A DNA stretch of 36,353 nucleotides, from NCBI GenBank assembly GCA_043742365.1, contig JAYTYM010000016.1, forward strand, positions 1-36,353. The letters are read 5' to 3'. Under the pieces are notes generated by a model, which saw only the letters and a program-made list of their open reading frames with translations, did no database searches and had not been told where the DNA came from. Positions 2,225-32,023 of the stretch are shown piece by piece; position 1 is the first letter of the stretch; each line of letters opens with the position of its first letter. A program made the position numbers and the translations under genes. The stretch comes from a bacterium (GTDB lineage Bacteria; Patescibacteriota; Minisyncoccia; Phycocordibacterales; UBA6899).

Positions 2225-3592
2225 ATGCTTGACCTTAAAACAATGAAGAGCGCACTGGAGCAGCTCGAAGCCGAGAAAGGCATTCCAAAAGAGAAGATCA
2301 TCGATGCCATAGAAGCTGCGCTTGCAGCCGCTTACAAAAAAGATTACGGCAAGAAGGGCCAGATCGTTCGCGCCAAGCTCGACATGGACACCGGTAAGAC
2401 CGATTTCGTACAGGTAAAGATCATCGTCGATGACGGCATGGTCCGTCAGCCCGTCGAAGGCGAAGAGGAGGACGACGACTTACCCGTGAAGCCTTTCATA
2501 AGTACCCCAGAGCCCATTGTCGGTGCTGAGGGCGAGGGAGATATCGACACCCGCGTACGTTACAACCCCGAGCACCACATCATGATCGAGGATGCACGCC
2601 TCATCAAGAGCGGGGCTGAACTCGGTGAGGAACTCGTTTTTGCACTTGACGCGAAGGACGACTACGGACGTATTGCTGCACAAACTGCAAAGCAGGTCAT
2701 TATTCAGAAGATCCGCGAAGCTGAGAAGTCCTCCGTGCTTGATGAATTTGCACAGCGCGGAGAAGAAATCGTCACTGGTCTTGTGCAGCGTATCGAGCGT
2801 GGCAATATCTTCATTGACCTTGGGCGTGCAACAGGCCTCATGGGCTACGAAGACCAGATCCCTGGTGAGCGCTATCGCACAGGTGAGCGCATTCGAAGCT
2901 ACCTATATTCAGTCGAGGAATCTCCTCGCGGTATCAATCTACGATTGTCGCGTGCGCATCCAAACTTTGTTCGCGCCTTATTCTCTCTTGAGGCCCCAGA
3001 AGTACAAAACGGCATAGTTGAACTCAAAGAAATTGCGCGCGAAGCAGGCTCACGCACGAAGATCGCCGTACATTCTAACGATTCACACGTTGACCCTGTT
3101 GGCTCATGTGTCGGCCAGCGCGGAGTGCGCGTCGCAACCGTCATCTCAGAGCTCGGCGGTGAGAAGATCGACGTTATCGAATGGTCGCCCGATATTGAGA
3201 AGTTCATTGCAGATGCACTTTCACCGGCGAAGGTGCGCAGTGTCATCGTCAACAATGAAGACCGGCAAGCAACTGTCGAGGTTATGCCTGACCAACTTTC
3301 ACTTGCTATTGGCCGTGGCGGTCAAAACGTGCGCCTTGCAGCAAAGCTTACGGGCTATCGCATCGATATCAAGTCAACTGAGGGTGAGGCTACGGTGGCG
3401 GATGCTGACGAAAATTCTAAAACAAAGGATGCGTCGACTCCTGAAGAGGAAGTTGCGGAATTCATTTCATCAGAGAACATGGGAATGCCAGAAGATGCTG
3501 ATGAAGTAGCTGAAGCGCTGCCGCTTACGAGCGAGAGTGCGGTCACCGACGACAATACCAACATCGAAGAAGAGTACAAGACGAAAGAATAG
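2225..3592 (+). CDS. nusA: Transcription termination/antitermination factor NusA
   Basis: N-terminal domain, S1 domain and two KH domains (GRGGQNVRLAAKLTG), with an acidic C-terminal tail. Start set at MLDLKTMK (2225); the ORF-track start at 2105 lies in the leader. Confidence 0.93.
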   Translation: MLDLKTMKSALEQLEAEKGIPKEKIIDAIEAALAAAYKKDYGKKGQIVRAKLDMDTGKTDFVQVKIIVDDGMVRQPVEGEEEDDDLPVKPFISTPEPIVGAEGEGDIDTRVRYNPEHHIMIEDARLIKSGAELGEELVFALDAKDDYGRIAAQTAKQVIIQKIREAEKSSVLDEFAQRGEEIVTGLVQRIERGNIFIDLGRATGLMGYEDQIPGERYRTGERIRSYLYSVEESPRGINLRLSRAHPNFVRALFSLEAPEVQNGIVELKEIAREAGSRTKIAVHSNDSHVDPVGSCVGQRGVRVATVISELGGEKIDVIEWSPDIEKFIADALSPAKVRSVIVNNEDRQATVEVMPDQLSLAIGRGGQNVRLAAKLTGYRIDIKSTEGEATVADADENSKTKDASTPEEEVAEFISSENMGMPEDADEVAEALPLTSESAVTDDNTNIEEEYKTKE

Positions 3593-13682: not shown

Positions 13683-13797
13683 TGGTCAGTAGGGAGAATC
13701 GATTCCCCGGCGCAAGTGAAGCAGCGACCAAAATCACTTGAGCGTAGCGATTTGAGATTGGAAGTACTCTTGTGGTGTTCACTTGCTTCCCGCACCA
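13683..13797. ncRNA. tRNA-associated structured element A (short form of element B at 24246..24487); strand unresolved
   Basis: The 46-nt core at 13720-13765 matches 24358-24403 at 44/46. It is enclosed by the 9-bp helix 13712-13720 / 13778-13786, which covaries with copy B. A T-arm-like hairpin GGGGAAUCGAUUCUCCC lies at one end. Confidence 0.5.
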
Positions 13798-13840
13798 ATA
13801 TAAAAAAATCCTCTAAAGGATTTTTTTATATTGGTGCGGG
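13789..13840. terminator. Long perfect hairpin that incorporates the CCA end of the preceding tRNA-like element
   Basis: cccgcaccaatataaaaaaatcc-tctaaa-ggatttttttatattggtgcggg, 23-bp arms. Confidence 0.6.
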
Positions 13841-13989
13841 ACGGGAGAATCGAAGTCACGAATCACTAAATCTTTTTCGCTTTGCTCAAAAGCTTAAGTG
13901 TTCTCGACCCCGGCGCGCCACCTCACAAAGCTTCGGTATGCCTTGCGCCCAGTTCGATTCTCCGGAAGCTATGCTTCCTCCGTCCTCGC
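13832..13989 (-). ncRNA. tRNA-Gly-derived minihelix-like element with masked T-loop and about 100-nt insert; ends ..GUCCCGCACCA
   Basis: The 3' end UUCGAUU-CUCCC-GUCCCGC-A-CCA equals the T-loop, T-stem and acceptor of the adjacent tRNA-Gly(UCC). The 5' end GCG(A)GGAC mimics the acceptor 5' strand. The hairpin GGAAGC-AUA-GCUUCC follows. GGAGAAUCGAA (13953-13963 on plus) is the exact complement of UUCGAUUCUCC (13844-13854 on plus). Confidence 0.55.
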
Positions 13990-13990
13990 A

Positions 13991-14037
13991 TCGACAGCAA
14001 CAAAAAACGGCACAATGCCGTTTTTTGTTGCTGTCGA
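13991..14037. terminator. Perfect 22-bp hairpin between tRNA-Gly(UCC) and the minihelix-like element
   Basis: tcgacagcaacaaaaaacggca-caa-tgccgttttttgttgctgtcga. Confidence 0.6.
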
Positions 14038-14038
14038 G

Positions 14039-14109
14039 TGCGGGACGGGAGAATCGAACTCCCACCAAGAGTTTGGAAAACTCCTATTCTACCATTAAAC
14101 TAGTCCCGC
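14039..14109 (-). tRNA. tRNA-Gly (anticodon UCC), CCA not encoded
   Basis: GCGGGAC-UA-GUUU-AAUGGUA-GAAU-A-GGAGU-UUUCCAA-ACUCU-UGGU-GGGAG-UUCGAUU-CUCCC-GUCCCGC-A. All four stems pair. Confidence 0.93.
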
Positions 14110-14130: not shown

Positions 14131-14384
14131 TTCACCAAGAGTTTGGAAAGGCCTGTAGGCACTTCCAAATTTATACTTACTGCGGTCGTTAAATTTTTAG
14201 GTCGGTGCGCGAAATGGGAATTTCGGCACACTTCCAAATTTATACTCCTTACAGGAGCTGTCCACTTATTGGGTCTTTTTCAAAAGCCCTCAATGAGTCT
14301 TACGGTGCGGGTCCCGTACCCACACCTCACGCTCTGCTCCTTAAATTTTAGGTCGCTCCCATTCTACCCTTAAACTAGTCCCGC
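14131..14384 (-). ncRNA. Promoter-proximal composite: a perfect tRNA-Gly 5' half (14355-14384) fused to about 220 nt of structured repeat modules, with no T-arm
   Basis: GCGGGAC-UA-GUUU-AAGGGUA-GAAU-G-GGAGC is followed by two CGACCUAAAA..UAUAAAUUUGGAAGUG modules. There is an 18-nt exact direct repeat at 14160-14177 and 14229-14246. A copy of the window-start module sits at 14258-14348. A 17-nt duplicate of the tRNA-Gly(UCC) anticodon/variable region lies at 14133-14149 (= 14063-14079). Confidence 0.5.
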
Positions 14385-14418
14385 ACTGACGTTCGGCTCA
14401 AACTTGAACGTGCTTCGT

Positions 14419-24245: not shown

Positions 24246-24487
24246 TGGTCGGCGTGCAGGGAATCGAAGCTTACTGCTTCAGTATACCTTTGCGATTTAA
24301 TCGAAGCATAACTCCTCATAAATACCGCAAAGCTCTTCGATTCCCTGGCGTGAGCAAAGCAGCGACCAAAATCTCTTGAGCGTAGCGATTAGAGATTGGA
24401 AGTGACCAATTCTTCTTTTGCGCTCATCCGCTTAGAAGAATGGAAATACTCTCGTGGTGACTCTTGTGGTGTTTACTCACTCATCCC
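24246..24487 (-). ncRNA. tRNA-Pro-like CCA-ended structured element B (long form of element A)
   Basis: Ends CUUCGAUU-CCCUG-CACGCCG-A-CCA (C1:G72-type, Pro-like). A 13-bp perfect inverted repeat cagggaatcgaag (24257-24269) / cttcgattccctg (24335-24347) masks the T-loop. The 46-nt core at 24358-24403 is shared with element A. The helix 24350-24358 / 24472-24480 covaries with A. Confidence 0.55.
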
Positions 24488-24490
24488 CCC

Positions 24491-24531
24491 CCAAAAATAA
24501 AAAGTCCCCCAAAGGGAGACTTTTTATTTGG
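24491..24531. terminator. Hairpin overlapping the CCA end of tRNA-Pro
   Basis: ccaaaaataaaaagtccccc-aaa-gggagactttttatttgg. Confidence 0.6.
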
Positions 24532-24602
24532 TCGGGCTGCAGAGAATCGAACTCTGACCTCATGCTCCCAAAGCAAGCATACTACCACTATACTACAGCC
24601 CG
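24529..24602 (-). tRNA. tRNA-Pro (anticodon UGG), CCA encoded
   Basis: CGGGCUG-UA-GUAU-AGUGGUA-GUAU-G-CUUGC-UUUGGGA-GCAUG-AGGU-CAGAG-UUCGAUU-CUCUG-CAGCCCG-A-CCA. Confidence 0.92.
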
Positions 24603-26794: not shown

Positions 26795-26940
26795 TGGTGC
26801 GGGCAGATAGAATCGAACGCACAAGTTACTTAGTATTTTGACGCAAGAGCCTTAAAAATACTAAGTATCCGCGGTCCCACCTCGCTATCTTACAGAGCTT
26901 CGATATAGCTCCGGTCAGTTCGATTCTTCCGTCCCGACGC
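26795..26940 (-). ncRNA. tRNA-Gly-derived minihelix-like element (homolog of 13832..13989); ends ..UGCCCGCACCA
   Basis: The 3' end UUCGAUU-CUAUC-UGCCCGC-A-CCA has the acceptor of the adjacent tRNA-Gly(GCC). AGAAUCGAAC (26918-26927 on plus) complements GUUCGAUUCU (26809-26818 on plus). It shares GAAUCGAACUG, CGAAGCU.UGU.AG and GAGGUGG with the 13.9-kb copy, plus a homologous long hairpin with changed sequence. Confidence 0.55.
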
Positions 26941-26988: not shown

Positions 26989-26989
26989 G

Positions 26990-27060
26990 TGCGGGCAGGG
27001 AGAATCGAACTCCCATCTTAACCTTGGCAAGGTCATGTTCTACCATTAAACCATGCCCGC
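26990..27060 (-). tRNA. tRNA-Gly (anticodon GCC), CCA not encoded
   Basis: GCGGGCA-UG-GUUU-AAUGGUA-GAAC-A-UGACC-UUGCCAA-GGUUA-AGAU-GGGAG-UUCGAUU-CUCCC-UGCCCGC-A. Confidence 0.93.
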
Positions 27061-27190
27061 AAATAATTTTTTCTTCAAAGACGGCTTTTCGATGGGAGAA
27101 CTTCCAATTCTTACTACTTTCGATCTTGGAATTTAGGTCGCCCCCACTTAGCTCAGCAAAGTTCATATTTTACCATCAAACCATGCCCGC
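27061..27190 (-). ncRNA. Promoter-proximal composite: tRNA-Gly 5' half mimic (27161-27190) plus a CGACCUAAA..UUGGAAGU module, with no T-arm
   Basis: GCGGGCA-UG-GUUU-GAUGGUA-AAAU-A-UGAAC is followed by about 60 nt and then GUUCU, which closes the anticodon-like stem. The module (27098-27140) is flanked by the helix UGGGGG / CUCCCA. Confidence 0.5.
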
Positions 27191-27200
27191 ATGTCGTCAT

Positions 27201-27306: not shown

Positions 27307-27378
27307 GCTCTCGTAGTGAAATGGATATCACGACTGCCTTCGAAGCAGTTATTCCAGGTTCGAATCCTGGCGGGAGCA
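27307..27378 (+). tRNA. tRNA-Arg (anticodon UCG), CCA not encoded
   Basis: GCUCUCG-UA-GUGA-AAUGGAUA-UCAC-G-ACUGC-CUUCGAA-GCAGU-UAUU-CCAGG-UUCGAAU-CCUGG-CGGGAGC-A. Confidence 0.93.
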
Positions 27379-27513
27379 CAGCGAGTCTTCGAGTTGGCTC
27401 CCGAGGAGCTGAACTGCTTCAGCTCCGACAGGATTCGAAAGACTTTTCGTTGACGATTCCTAGAGTCCGAAAAGTACCTGCCGATGTAATCGGAGAATCC
27501 TGGCGGGAGCACA
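27379..27513 (+). ncRNA. tRNA-Arg-derived minihelix-like element bounded by a 19-nt direct repeat of the tRNA 3' end
   Basis: gaatcctggcgggagcaca occurs at 27362-27380 and 27495-27513. The insert carries GCUCCCG (27397-27403, complement of the acceptor 3' strand) and the hairpin GGAGCUGAA-CUGC-UUCAGCUCC. It also carries CAGGAUUCGAA (27429-27439), the exact complement of the T-loop/T-stem at 27359-27369. Confidence 0.55.
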
Positions 27514-27557
27514 AAAGCGTCTAAAAATGAGAACTGCTTCTCATTTTTAGCTTTTGT
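27514..27557 (+). terminator. Intrinsic terminator after the tRNA-Arg unit
   Basis: CUAAAAAUGAGA-loop-UCUCAUUUUUAG, 12 bp, followed by CUUUUG. Confidence 0.75.
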
Positions 27558-27760
27558 GAGACAGAGTATGTTTTGTTCAGCAGAACGAAACAACGAGTCG
27601 GGGTCGCGGAAATTTTCGAGTGAAGACGAGAAAATTATCTGTGACCTGCGCCCAGATCTCACATATCATAGAATTTCTGACATAACGTTTTAAATGAGGC
27701 CCTTTATGGGCGCTCCTATTTAATGAATTGAGCTTTTGATGACATAATACTATTATCCTC

Positions 27761-29245
27761 ATGCCCCACTTCACCATTCCTGACGAGATAAAAAACATCA
27801 CCAACACCCTACAAAGTGCTGGATTTGAGGCGTACCTCGTTGGTGGGTGCGTGAGAGATCTTTTACGCGCAACTACTCCTAAAGACTGGGATGTGACGAC
27901 AAATGCGAATCCCGAACAGATAATATCCTTATTCACTAAAACATTTTATGAAAACGAATACGGAACAGTGGGTGTGGTTAATGAGTCAATATCTGAGGAC
28001 GAGACAGAAAAACTTTCATTGCGGGTAGTAGAAATTACGCCCTATAGAAAAGAAACTACTTATAGCAACTTTCGTCATCCCGATGAGGTGGTCTTTTCCG
28101 GAAATCTGCATGATGATCTTATGCGCCGCGACTTTACCATGAACGCCATCGCGTATGATGTGAAAAATAATGAGCTTGTTGACCCATACGACGGTCAGGG
28201 TGACATAAAACGTCACTTAATTCGCACTGTGGGAAAGCCTAAAGACCGTTTTAACGAAGATGCTCTGCGCATTATGCGCGCTGTTCGTTTTGGTGCTGAA
28301 CTTGGTTTTGTCATAGAAAAAGAGACCATGGACGCGATAGTCTTGTTCGCACCTCGACTTGAGACTATCGCGGGGGAGCGTCTACGGGATGAGTTCACGA
28401 AGATAATCATGTCAGAACGACCAATGGAAGGGATTATCATGCTCGAACGAACAAAAACCCTCAAATATATCCTGCCTGAGCTTGAACAAGGTCTTGCATG
28501 CGAGCAAAATGGCGACCACATTTATGATGTGTGGGAGCATAACCTCCGCGCACTGCAGCATTCTGCAGAACGAAAGTGGCCGCTGCATGTACGCATTGCA
28601 GCGCTCTTACATGACATTGGGAAGCCTGCGACTCGCAAATGGTCAGAAGAAAAACGCGACTGGACGTTCTATGGTCACGACGTTGTCGGCGGGAGAATGG
28701 CAACGAAGATCCTTGAGCGCCTGCGTTTTCCGAAGCAATTCATTCATGATGTCTCAACGCTCGTGCGCTATCATTTATTCTTTTCTGATATTGAAAAAAT
28801 AACTCTCTCAGCTGTTCGTCGCATTGTTTCTAATGTTGGACCTGAATTAGTATGGGACCTTATGAACGTGCGGGCGTGTGACCGTATTGGGATGGGCAGG
28901 CCAAAGGAAACTCCATATCGATTACGTAAATATCATTCAATGATTGAAGAGGCGATGCGAGACCCTATATCAGTCGGAATGATCAAGCTTGATGGTCAAA
29001 AAATAATGCAAATTACAAAAGAGAGTCCGAGCCCGAGAATCGGCTGGCTCTTGCATGCACTTTTTGAAGAGGTGCTCGAAAATCCCTTATTGAACAGCGA
29101 GGAATATTTGACCGCCCGCACTATAGAACTCGCAAAAGACGACCCTGAGGTACTAAAAAAACTCGGCGAGGCAGGGAAAGAAAAAAAGGATGAGAAAGAG
29201 CAGGGAGAGGTGAATGCAATTCGACAAAAATATCGTGTTAAATAA
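27761..29245 (+). CDS. cca: tRNA nucleotidyltransferase (CCA-adding enzyme family) with HD domain
   Basis: GGCVRDLLR..DWDV polymerase-beta head, RDFTMNA, and HD motif AALLHDIGK. Confidence 0.9.
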   Translation: MPHFTIPDEIKNITNTLQSAGFEAYLVGGCVRDLLRATTPKDWDVTTNANPEQIISLFTKTFYENEYGTVGVVNESISEDETEKLSLRVVEITPYRKETTYSNFRHPDEVVFSGNLHDDLMRRDFTMNAIAYDVKNNELVDPYDGQGDIKRHLIRTVGKPKDRFNEDALRIMRAVRFGAELGFVIEKETMDAIVLFAPRLETIAGERLRDEFTKIIMSERPMEGIIMLERTKTLKYILPELEQGLACEQNGDHIYDVWEHNLRALQHSAERKWPLHVRIAALLHDIGKPATRKWSEEKRDWTFYGHDVVGGRMATKILERLRFPKQFIHDVSTLVRYHLFFSDIEKITLSAVRRIVSNVGPELVWDLMNVRACDRIGMGRPKETPYRLRKYHSMIEEAMRDPISVGMIKLDGQKIMQITKESPSPRIGWLLHALFEEVLENPLLNSEEYLTARTIELAKDDPEVLKKLGEAGKEKKDEKEQGEVNAIRQKYRVK

Positions 29246-31084: not shown

Positions 31085-32023
31085 CTATTGCCGACGTTTG
31101 TCGTGAAACTGTTTATGAATGTCCCTGAGTTTGCTATCGGTCACATGTGTATAGATCTGTGTGGTTGCAATATTTGCATGTCCGAGCAATGCCTGCACCG
31201 AGCGCAGGTCAGCACCATTTTCAAGAAGGTCTGTGGCAAAGCTGTGGCGAATAACATGAGGAGTAACCTTTTTAGAAATACCTGCTTTAACTGCGTAATG
31301 TTTCACGAGGCGTTCCACAGATCGCGGCGTCAGTCGCAGATCTCCCTTTTTGGTCGCAAGAGTTTTTACTCCACCTCGACCGATCTGAATGAATAACGCA
31401 CTATCTACATCTGTCCTTTTGTTTAAGTACAGTTTGAGTGCGTTCTTGGCTGTCTCTGACAAAAAAACCACGCGTACTTTTTCGCCTTTTCCACGTACGG
31501 AAAATTGATCACGCGTCAGGTCAAGGTCGCGTGGAAGTCCACACAACTCTGAGACACGCAGTCCAGTTGAAAAGAAAAGCTCAAGTATGGCGCGGTCTCT
31601 AAGTGCAGGAAGCATCTCTCCTTGTGGGGCATTCAATAGTCGCGTCAGGTCTTGAGACGAAATAAGGTCGAGTTCTCGCTCTGATGCTTTCGCGAGCTCA
31701 ATACGTTCAGGCGACATGACCGAAACCCCTTCGCGCGAAAGATATTTGAGAAATGCGCGCAGGGCAATAAGGTAGTAATTCTGGGTGCGCTTCTTCAGCG
31801 TATCTGATGCAATGCCACGCTTAGAAACGCGTGCATTCTGGCGATTAAGCCACAGTCGATACTCACGCACTATTTCAAGAGTTATTTTCTCTGGGTCCGT
31901 GAGTTTCGTGTGTTCGATGAATCGAGAAAGATAGTGATCATAATTAATGACGGTTTTAAGGCTTCTGCCTTTTTCGATCTCGATGTATTCAAGAAAGCGT
32001 CTTTTCCATTCAATGAGATTCAT
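31085..32023 (-). CDS. Tyrosine site-specific recombinase, XerC/XerD-like
   Basis: N-terminal SAM-like domain. C-terminal catalytic motifs: LRVSEL (Arg), HVIRHSFAT, LLGHANIATTQIYTHV (Tyr). Confidence 0.9.
   Translation of the reverse strand: MNLIEWKRRFLEYIEIEKGRSLKTVINYDHYLSRFIEHTKLTDPEKITLEIVREYRLWLNRQNARVSKRGIASDTLKKRTQNYYLIALRAFLKYLSREGVSVMSPERIELAKASERELDLISSQDLTRLLNAPQGEMLPALRDRAILELFFSTGLRVSELCGLPRDLDLTRDQFSVRGKGEKVRVVFLSETAKNALKLYLNKRTDVDSALFIQIGRGGVKTLATKKGDLRLTPRSVERLVKHYAVKAGISKKVTPHVIRHSFATDLLENGADLRSVQALLGHANIATTQIYTHVTDSKLRDIHKQFHDKRRQ

Follow-up and report, generated by a model that had tools for sequence, protein, structure and literature searches.

Why is a transfer RNA (tRNA) gene followed, a short distance downstream, by a second copy of its own 3' end, and what is the sequence enclosed between the two copies? 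The question is raised by the tRNA-Arg(TCG) gene of a 36,353-nt contig (JAYTYM010000016.1, assembly GCA_043742365.1, forward strand; hereafter the window) from a bacterium of the GTDB lineage Bacteria; Patescibacteriota; Minisyncoccia; Phycocordibacterales; UBA6899. An earlier reading of this DNA, made from its letters alone (the sequence-only reading), had noted a 19-nt direct repeat of the tRNA 3' end and three pieces within the insert, i.e., a complement of the acceptor 3' strand, a 9-bp hairpin and a complement of T-loop plus T-stem, followed by a strong terminator. It had proposed that the second repeat pairs with the antisense pieces into a 'shadow' minihelix. We find that insert and second repeat make up a structured element that belongs to a large family in Parcubacteria, which has two core types and is located almost exclusively just downstream of tRNAs on the tRNA strand. 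As the probable explanation, we propose that the repeat marks the 3' boundary of a tRNA-linked repeat element of about 133 nt (27381-27513), i.e., an RNA module that would be co-transcribed with its tRNA, processed, and turned over at the repeats.

Anatomy of the element at tRNA-Arg

The 19-mer GAATCCTGGCGGGAGCACA occurs as two exact copies in the window (27362-27380 and 27495-27513, both on the plus strand), compared to 0.01 matches expected by chance, and none of 100 shuffled sequences contained two copies. Only 114 nt lie between the two. All three pieces listed by the sequence-only reading can be read directly from the sequence, and the terminator is found as a hairpin with T-run at 27521-27550. 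The piece antisense to the T-arm, CAGGATTCGAA (27429-27439), is the exact reverse complement of TTCGAATCCTG at 27359-27369. CCA is not encoded by the tRNA gene, the end of which reads GGGAGCA-CAG. The element as a whole consists of a split 5' arm, a core of two hairpins (P2 and P3) and a 3' arm that copies the last 19 nt of the tRNA, and the two arms pair (Table 1).

In the predicted fold of insert plus second repeat, the arms close a junction of three hairpins (P1, P2 and P3). Its predicted minimum free energy (MFE) is -55.4 kcal/mol (z = -4.35), and none of 200 shuffled sequences was as stable. The opposite strand is predicted to fold about equally well, so that the folding strand cannot be identified from energy alone.

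Table 1. Coordinates of the features at the tRNA-Arg locus and of related features elsewhere in the window; R1 and R2 are covariance models for type-B and type-A elements, respectively.
Feature	Positions	Strand	Evidence or remark
tRNA-Arg(TCG) gene	27307-27379	+	ARAGORN; Rfam tRNA model, 67.7 bits
Proximal 19-nt copy	27362-27380	+	from T-loop position 57 through acceptor 3' strand and discriminator, plus 2 nt
Short trailer or spacer	27381-27396	+	no terminator; same in L001 and L002 except for one base in L002
5' arm, part 1 (GCTCCCG)	27397-27403	+	complement of acceptor 3' strand CGGGAGC; pairs with 27505-27511 in the predicted fold
P1 hairpin, GGAGCTGAA-CTGC-TTCAGCTCC	27405-27426	+	9 bp, loop CTGC; sequence, stems covary across relatives
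5' arm, part 2 (CAGGATTCGAA)	27429-27439	+	complement of T-stem 3' strand and whole T-loop; sequence, closing helix 93% paired
P2 hairpin of type-A core (ACTTTTCG...CGAAAAGT)	27442-27475	+	predicted fold; compensatory changes
P3 hairpin of type-A core (CCGAT-GTA-ATCGG)	27481-27493	+	predicted fold; GTA in loop conserved; 4/4 pairs changed on both sides
3' arm, distal 19-nt copy of tRNA 3' end	27495-27513	+	exact copy; R2 match 27428-27512, 73.3 bits
Bidirectional intrinsic-terminator-like hairpin (T2) with T-run	27521-27550	+	homologous to the hairpin directly after tRNA-Arg in L006
Second element, type-B core, short arms GTGAGA/TCTCAC	27557-27657	+	R1, 49.4 bits, E = 3e-11
Type-B element after tRNA-Gly(GCC) (26989-27060)	26797-26930	-	same architecture; R1
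Type-A element after tRNA-Pro(TGG) (24529-24602)	24248-24347	-	R2, 84.4 bits
Type-B element after tRNA-Gly(TCC) (14038-14109)	13834-13964	-	R1; terminator hairpin on each side (terminator scan)
Incomplete tRNA copies (5' parts), each upstream of the gene copied	14356-14385, 14133-14149, 27142-27191	-	sequence
Xer-type tyrosine recombinase gene	31085-32023	-	outside the repeats

Structural families downstream of tRNA genes

For comparison, 80 syntenic related loci (single loci are given by L numbers) were gathered through relatives of the window's cca gene, i.e., the gene 250 nt downstream, which encodes a CCA-adding or poly(A)-polymerase-type enzyme. Its coordinates are 27761-29245. By the relatives of this gene, the window belongs to Parcubacteria (Ca. 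Lloydbacteria) of the Candidate Phyla Radiation (CPR), and the neighbourhood of tRNA-Pro, tRNA-Gly, tRNA-Arg and cca is conserved among them. Exact matching for 231 tRNAs shows that many have an inverted copy of their 3' end 30-90 nt and a direct copy 90-260 nt downstream of it, with almost no such copies upstream. With tolerant matching, a direct copy was observed for 71 of 226 tRNAs, an inverted copy for 89, and both in the right order for 50. Direct copies on the same strand with at most one mismatch are located in 53/66 cases at 0-400 nt downstream and never at 400-1000 nt; more distant ones were traced to isoacceptors with a common 3' end.

Two covariance models extend this census. R1 (type B) has 77 matches in 848 kb, of which 69 are located 13-243 nt downstream of a same-strand tRNA, and R2 (type A) has 65, among them the elements of the window at 27428-27512 (73.3 bits) and 24248-24347 (84.4 bits). 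Taken together, the models yield 116 distinct matches in about 850 kb, and 105 of these have a same-strand tRNA no more than 600 nt upstream. At least one element is present at 93 of the 214 tRNAs with enough downstream sequence (43%), and at nine tRNAs they form tandems of two or three. The tRNAs with elements include those for Arg, Gly, Pro and Leu. The elements measure 114-250 nt and carry no gene, and only one clearly inverted core was seen among about 116. Many tRNA-Arg loci have short-armed type-B copies, the arms of which (TTGTGC...ACAAG) are the complement and the copy of the last tRNA bases plus trailer, with an arm length of 5-8 nt in some copies. A strict scan of 86 elements for terminator-like hairpins found one between tRNA and element (T1) in 37, one after the element (T2) in 20 and both in 12. 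The flank that follows the distal copy is usually of the native type, i.e., 'CAA plus terminator'.

Both core types are predicted three-way junctions. Type A, represented in the window by the Arg and Pro loci, was aligned for 20 sequences. Here, the pairing of the T-arm complement with the distal copy, as proposed by the sequence-only reading, is borne out in 93% of the cells of the closing helix, while P3 is paired in 84% with 4/4 pairs changed on both sides. The covariation score is 0.516 compared to 0.196 in shuffles (0/500 reached it). Among Arg orthologues and close kin, compensatory changes are found in 15/20 pairs of P1 and P2; for P1 alone, 9/9 pairs are supported and 8/9 show compensatory changes, e.g., the stem GGAGCTGAA/TTCAGCTCC of the window reads GGAACTGAG/CTCAGTTCC in L001. 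The type-B alignment (15 sequences) has the consensus ...GAA-AGCCGGAGC-hairpin-GCGAGGCGGGGTCGCG-hairpin-CGTGACC-3' arm. In this family, 94.6% of the cells are paired, both sides have changed in 20/27 pairs, and the covariation score of 0.559 compares to 0.174 in shuffles (0/500 reached it) and to at most 0.142 with slid partners. One G.U pair is kept in 14 of the 15 members, and a small helix is flanked by GA/GA. Over all helices, the ratio of G.U to A.C is 24:4 for type B and 30:18 for type A. Given the conserved G.U pair and the excess of G.U over A.C, the tRNA-sense strand appears to be the one that folds.

The 'shadow' minihelix is thus only partly recovered. The predicted fold and the pairing of the arms speak for it, but its acceptor half is often degenerate or absent in relatives and some arms are as short as noted above. 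That is, a tRNA-like minihelix is not the conserved core, and the claim was overstated in this respect.

Separately, the P1 loop contains a motif, AACTGCTT (27411-27418), that is found again at 27531-27538 in the loop of the terminator. It recurs in the loops of terminator hairpins after tRNA-Arg (L006, L079, L051, L040) and in P1 hairpins of Gly and Pro elements of other genomes. P1 may have been derived from a terminator hairpin.

Gain and turnover of elements can be followed in the relatives. In L006, the type-A element is absent, and the sequence directly behind tRNA-Arg aligns to the distal-repeat flank of the window (41/64 identical, score 14.5) rather than to its proximal-repeat flank (score -2.5), from which it follows that window and L006 differ by a 133-bp indel bounded by the repeat. 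This indel is seen by pairwise flank alignment, and not cleanly in a MAFFT alignment of the window with L006, L002 and L001. Tandem arrays comprise three units in L004 and two each in L029, L008, L003 and L076. Furthermore, the orthologous tRNA-Gly(GCC) is followed by a type-B core in the window and by type A in L002, L003, L006, L008 and L010, and near-identical cores are present at different tRNAs of one genome (Pro and Gly in L040, Gly and Arg in L044).

Within the window, all four tRNAs (Gly-TCC, Pro-TGG, Gly-GCC and Arg) show the same downstream layout (the sequence-only reading had noted the minihelix at the Gly and Pro loci as well): often a terminator hairpin, then the complement of the 3' end, a structured stretch, a direct 3'-end copy that starts within the T-loop, and usually a terminator. 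Terminators stand on both sides of the element at the Gly-TCC and Pro loci, and on the distal side only at Arg. The arms of the tRNA-Pro element (24248-24347) match each other better than they match the tRNA. A second element (27557-27657), the closing arms of which are not tRNA-derived, is located in the interval from the Arg element's terminator to the cca gene, and short-armed copies orthologous to it follow tRNA-Arg in many distant relatives. Other neighbouring genes are a UPF0102 gene, an exonuclease III-type gene, the Xer-type recombinase gene and PNPase.

Some further repeats were observed around these loci. Upstream of the Gly-TCC gene, a 30-nt copy of its own 5' half (93%) and a 17-nt copy of its anticodon arm are present on the minus strand, as is a 50-nt copy of the own 5' half (76%) upstream of Gly-GCC. 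The region upstream of Gly-TCC also holds an 18-nt repeat (14160-14177 and 14229-14246) beside P3-like hairpins. At 13788-13841, there is a perfect palindrome with 25-nt arms, in which the distal tRNA-Gly 3' copy (with CCA) and the left terminator half are mirrored by the right terminator half and TGGTGCGGGA; a similar one at 13975-14053 (38-nt arms, 82%) takes in the real tRNA 3' end. An additional shared repeat, ...ACTTCCAATCTC-AATCGCTACGCTCAAG-GATTTTGGTCGC..., is found at 13690-13790, 24350-24500 and 27100-27141. Its position at the Pro locus is between the two antisense pieces (acceptor and T-arm). It is present again behind the Gly-TCC element, in a third unit that has no core, and a related piece stands upstream of tRNA-Arg.

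Two observations concern the arrangement of the tRNA genes in the relatives. The orientation of tRNA-Gly(GCC) and tRNA-Arg(TCG) with respect to cca flips among close relatives (L001-L031 vs. window), with all four combinations present. The tRNA-Pro loci of L032, L065, L077, L063, L075, L057 and L038 have a nested layout, i.e., a copy of positions 1 to about 37, a segment L, the complete tRNA-Pro, the reverse complement of L, hairpins, and finally a copy of the variable loop, T-arm and acceptor 3' strand. It resembles an outer tRNA-Pro that is split in the anticodon loop by an insert holding a whole tRNA-Pro.

Known systems and alternative explanations

The tRNA-linked repeats (TLR) of E. coli were reportedly described by Egan & Landy in 1978 and by Rudd in 1999. 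They are the RtT RNA of Rfam (RF00391), which includes rttR in the tyrT operon and rrA, rrB and rrF after 5S rRNA. Neither this precedent nor the membership in a family had been recognised by the sequence-only reading. In E. coli, 22 copies are distributed over 10 loci with 1-5 copies each, their 3' end is identical over 18-19 bp to the upstream tRNA or rRNA gene, and those of the rrn operons are located between the terminators T1 and T2 (PMC8144298). Read-through transcription with subsequent processing was shown for rrB and rtT only, and the repeat was proposed to be a processing signal (PMC8144298). A mobilome preprint reports no circular DNA from the E. coli rttR region.

The elements described here resemble TLR in several respects. 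Both follow a stable-RNA gene immediately 3' and on the same strand, and both end in 18-19 nt identical to the 3' end of that gene (an exact 19-nt copy at tRNA-Arg). Both are about 100-180 nt long and occur in 1-5 tandem units (in the window, a type-A element followed by a type-B one). A position between two terminators, frequent for TLR, is seen here at the Gly-TCC and Pro loci and for 12/86 elements in the strict scan. The closing helix is alike as well, since in both the 3' copy is paired to an inner segment complementary to T-stem and acceptor; for RtT, this pairing is GGGGAAGGAU:AUCCUUCCCC. As a positive control, the E. coli tyrT-tyrV locus, the 178-bp units of which end in ATCCTTCCCCCACCACCA, gave four RtT matches with 133-137 bits. 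Each of the 178-bp tyrT units at this locus (L202; NC_000913.3, 1286709-1287236) contains GGGGAAGGAT-GAGAAGC-TTCGACC, i.e., a split complement of the tRNA-Tyr T-arm, much like the P1-split 5' arm of the CPR elements.

In contrast, homology to RtT is undetectable in either direction. The RtT model (gathering score 45 bits) has no match in the window, none over the elements at E-values up to 10 or 5 and none in 11 relatives, and R1/R2 score 6.4 bits or nothing on the E. coli units. We therefore file the element as working like TLR and not as an RtT member. The CPR elements also differ from TLR in that they have two core types, each a three-way junction, in that the 5' arm can include an acceptor complement and the P1 hairpin, in being present at 43% of the sampled tRNA genes instead of in 22 copies at 10 loci, and in their CPR host. 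Rfam scans of the window and the 11 relatives returned tRNAs only, i.e., no family for these elements; weak matches to YrlA and microRNA models were discarded as tRNA or hairpin artefacts. Our literature searches found only E. coli work under 'tRNA-linked repeat' and nothing relevant on tRNA-like, structured or intron elements in CPR. Hammerhead-like CUGA/GAAA motifs, seen by eye, are not conserved across members and have no Rfam match, and a ribozyme was dismissed.

A more remote likeness concerns plant mitochondrial t-elements, mascRNA and bacterial YrlA, in which an acceptor-type helix stands beside a T-stem-type helix; by analogy, such a pair of helices could recruit tRNA end-processing enzymes. 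The present elements differ in having no T-loop but the core in its place. The Rfam tRNA model matches the four genuine tRNAs of the window and not the element, and the YrlA model reaches 28 bits (gathering score 69) with a match that lies mostly on a genuine tRNA.

According to the explanation we favour, the element would be co-transcribed with tRNA-Arg, as suggested by a hairpin scan of the locus that found no terminator between tRNA and insert, and by the terminator that follows at 27521-27550. The element could then be released as a small structured RNA. Its ends would be set by the enzymes that trim tRNA ends, given that element and tRNA share their terminal sequence and helix, and the same has been proposed for the TLR of E. 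coli. Finally, copies may be gained, tandemly multiplied and lost by recombination between the repeated tRNA 3' ends.

Several points weigh against this explanation. Transcription and processing in this organism are what we infer from sequence, and 37/86 elements would need read-through because of the terminator-like hairpin between tRNA and element. Where T-stem positions are informative, the antisense arm matches tRNA and distal copy equally often (about five cases each), so that selection for arm pairing as such is not demonstrated. The covariation of the closing helix tracks tRNA identity and could arise from both arms being tRNA copies, and templated mutation acting on the DNA is another way in which perfect hairpins can be kept. 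Conservation at the locus itself is limited: a comparison with relatives, as the sequence-only reading had suggested, gave a mixed picture, with the family widespread elsewhere but the insert absent from L006, 3'-truncated in L001 and L009, where the acceptor part of the 3' arm is lost, and decaying in L002, where the repeat is kept and acceptor complement, P1 and P3 are broken by mutations. The element is therefore not essential and is dispensable over short evolutionary distances. Lastly, the MFE fold predicted for the whole transcript pairs the tRNA body with the distal copy and does not show tRNA plus 'shadow', although co-transcriptional folding should still favour the normal tRNA; the element might conceivably act as a switch or by interference.

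Part of this pattern would also be produced by a small non-autonomous mobile or integrative DNA element that inserts site-specifically into the tRNA from T-loop to 3' end and brings a replacement 3' end, an explanation we regard as unlikely but worth serious attention. In single-stranded DNA, folding of the inverted arms would imitate the duplex of the target, as for CTX-phi attP(+) or integron attC, and the hairpins would serve transposition and have no function as RNA. The insertion polymorphism of L006 bounded by the repeat, the tandem arrays, the different core types at orthologous tRNA-Gly(GCC) genes of close relatives, the near-identical cores at different tRNAs within L040 and within L044, the decaying copies and the usual native-type flank after the distal copy all fit such DNA mobility. 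The block of identity spans T-loop to position 74, and att (attachment) sites of tRNA-targeting integrases have such blocks (integrase sublocations). As in attP(+) and attC, two inverted target-like copies lie about 60-150 nt apart, can form hairpins and occur in tandem arrays. However, the conserved recombinase boxes of those systems (GTTRRRY-type R box) are lacking in the sequence, the window has no IntI or phage genes, and the arms are specific to each tRNA and differ from one tRNA to the next. The elements are not accompanied by a recombinase, the sole nearby one being syntenic regardless of the element, and with their 114-250 nt they hold no gene. Features that look like constraints on RNA are the conserved G.U pair, the internal loop GA/GA and the outnumbering of A.C by G.U (24:4). 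Only one clearly inverted core was seen among about 116, and arms of 5-8 nt taken from tRNA end plus trailer are hard to square with a fixed att core. Among viral contigs, a type-B 14-mer gave 120 stretches in IMG/VR, only one of which (L086) has an element context, and a type-A motif match (L201) was due to chance, so a phage origin was rejected. In L086 (IMGVR_UViG_3300033463_005745, 2826-3319), at least three type-B elements form an array with arms that match a tRNA 3' end ...CAAATCCCTCCCTCTCCG; this contig is catalogued as viral, and its stored 3.3 kb contain no tRNA or integrase. An origin from mature tRNA by reverse transcription was rejected too: CCA follows 3/4 distal copies in the window, but over the family it follows 10/71 distal copies compared to 8/71 genes, i.e., there is no enrichment.

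The sequence-only reading had itself offered, as its weaker alternative, an attL/attR-like duplication left by an integrative element, and this ranking holds. In this view, the repeats would be a passive scar, the larger phage or island that had integrated here having since been lost by deletion. Integration is classically recognised by a directly repeated tRNA 3' end, as in the att duplications left by tyrosine integrases with a T-loop sublocation, and L006 offers an empty site. Yet a search of the window for further copies of the 19-mer, which att-site logic would predict, found no third copy even with up to three mismatches. Copies among the 231 tRNA loci cluster at 0-400 nt, with none at 400-1000 nt, and no versions bearing open reading frames between the repeats were seen within 10 kb in the relatives. 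The inserts fall into two structural families that are conserved, covary and occur at tRNAs for Arg, Gly, Pro and Leu, and the Xer-type gene is a housekeeping one: it is found at the same relative place in at least 64/80 relatives, whether or not the element is present, and its identity tracks that of cca. Since a third repeat is lacking and neither cargo nor integrase accompanies the repeats on either side or in between, it is very unlikely that a larger element left a scar here. We also consider it quite improbable that the RNA functions in an alternative fold, where the distal 3' copy is paired to positions 1-53 of the tRNA (its body) and the antisense arm to the proximal 3' end; the element would then be an intron-like T-loop insertion or a switch between two tRNA 3' ends. 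This fold is the predicted MFE and centroid structure of transcript 27307-27556 (-109.3 kcal/mol, z = -7.6). Moreover, the antisense arm complements the entire T-loop (positions 54-60), and since the distal copy does not have this entire loop, the arm pairs more fully with the real tRNA. On the other hand, nothing is missing from the proximal tRNA, which would be the first to fold as transcription proceeds, a terminator precedes the element in many relatives, and the tRNA is intact in relatives with a truncated 3' arm. Precise splicing would be needed as well, given that the distal copy is without T54, T55 and C56, and we know of no bacterial machinery for such precise tRNA splicing.

Meaning for Parcubacteria and tRNA-linked repeats

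The kind of element is already known from E. coli; what is new are TLR-like elements with unrelated cores, in CPR bacteria, where they are far more pervasive. Although known since 1978, tRNA-linked repeats are still without an accepted function, and this architecture is now seen in a genome-reduced lineage far removed from E. coli, where it has either arisen or been retained. So much conserved non-coding sequence in genomes of about 1 Mb is unlikely to be neutral. The analysis yields two candidate RNA families outside Rfam, with alignments and models, and a large comparative data set for studying the role of TLR-type elements and the way in which they are copied. There is a consequence for annotation as well, since att sites or pseudo-tRNAs could wrongly be called where partial tRNA copies are present.

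A bolder view, which we put forward only tentatively and hold to be rather doubtful, is that the elements are a pervasive class of tRNA-templated structured RNAs in CPR, the arms of which are re-specified to whichever tRNA precedes them. If true, an active copying or recombination mechanism would read the tRNA gene at its 3' end, and the function would be tied to the tRNA end, e.g., in that enzymes or toxins with tRNA 3' ends as their target meet a decoy or competitor, or alternatively as a switch in which the tRNA body pairs with either of two 3' ends. The TLRs of E. coli and the elements of CPR would then be two cases of a general, so far unrecognised principle in bacterial tRNA operons.

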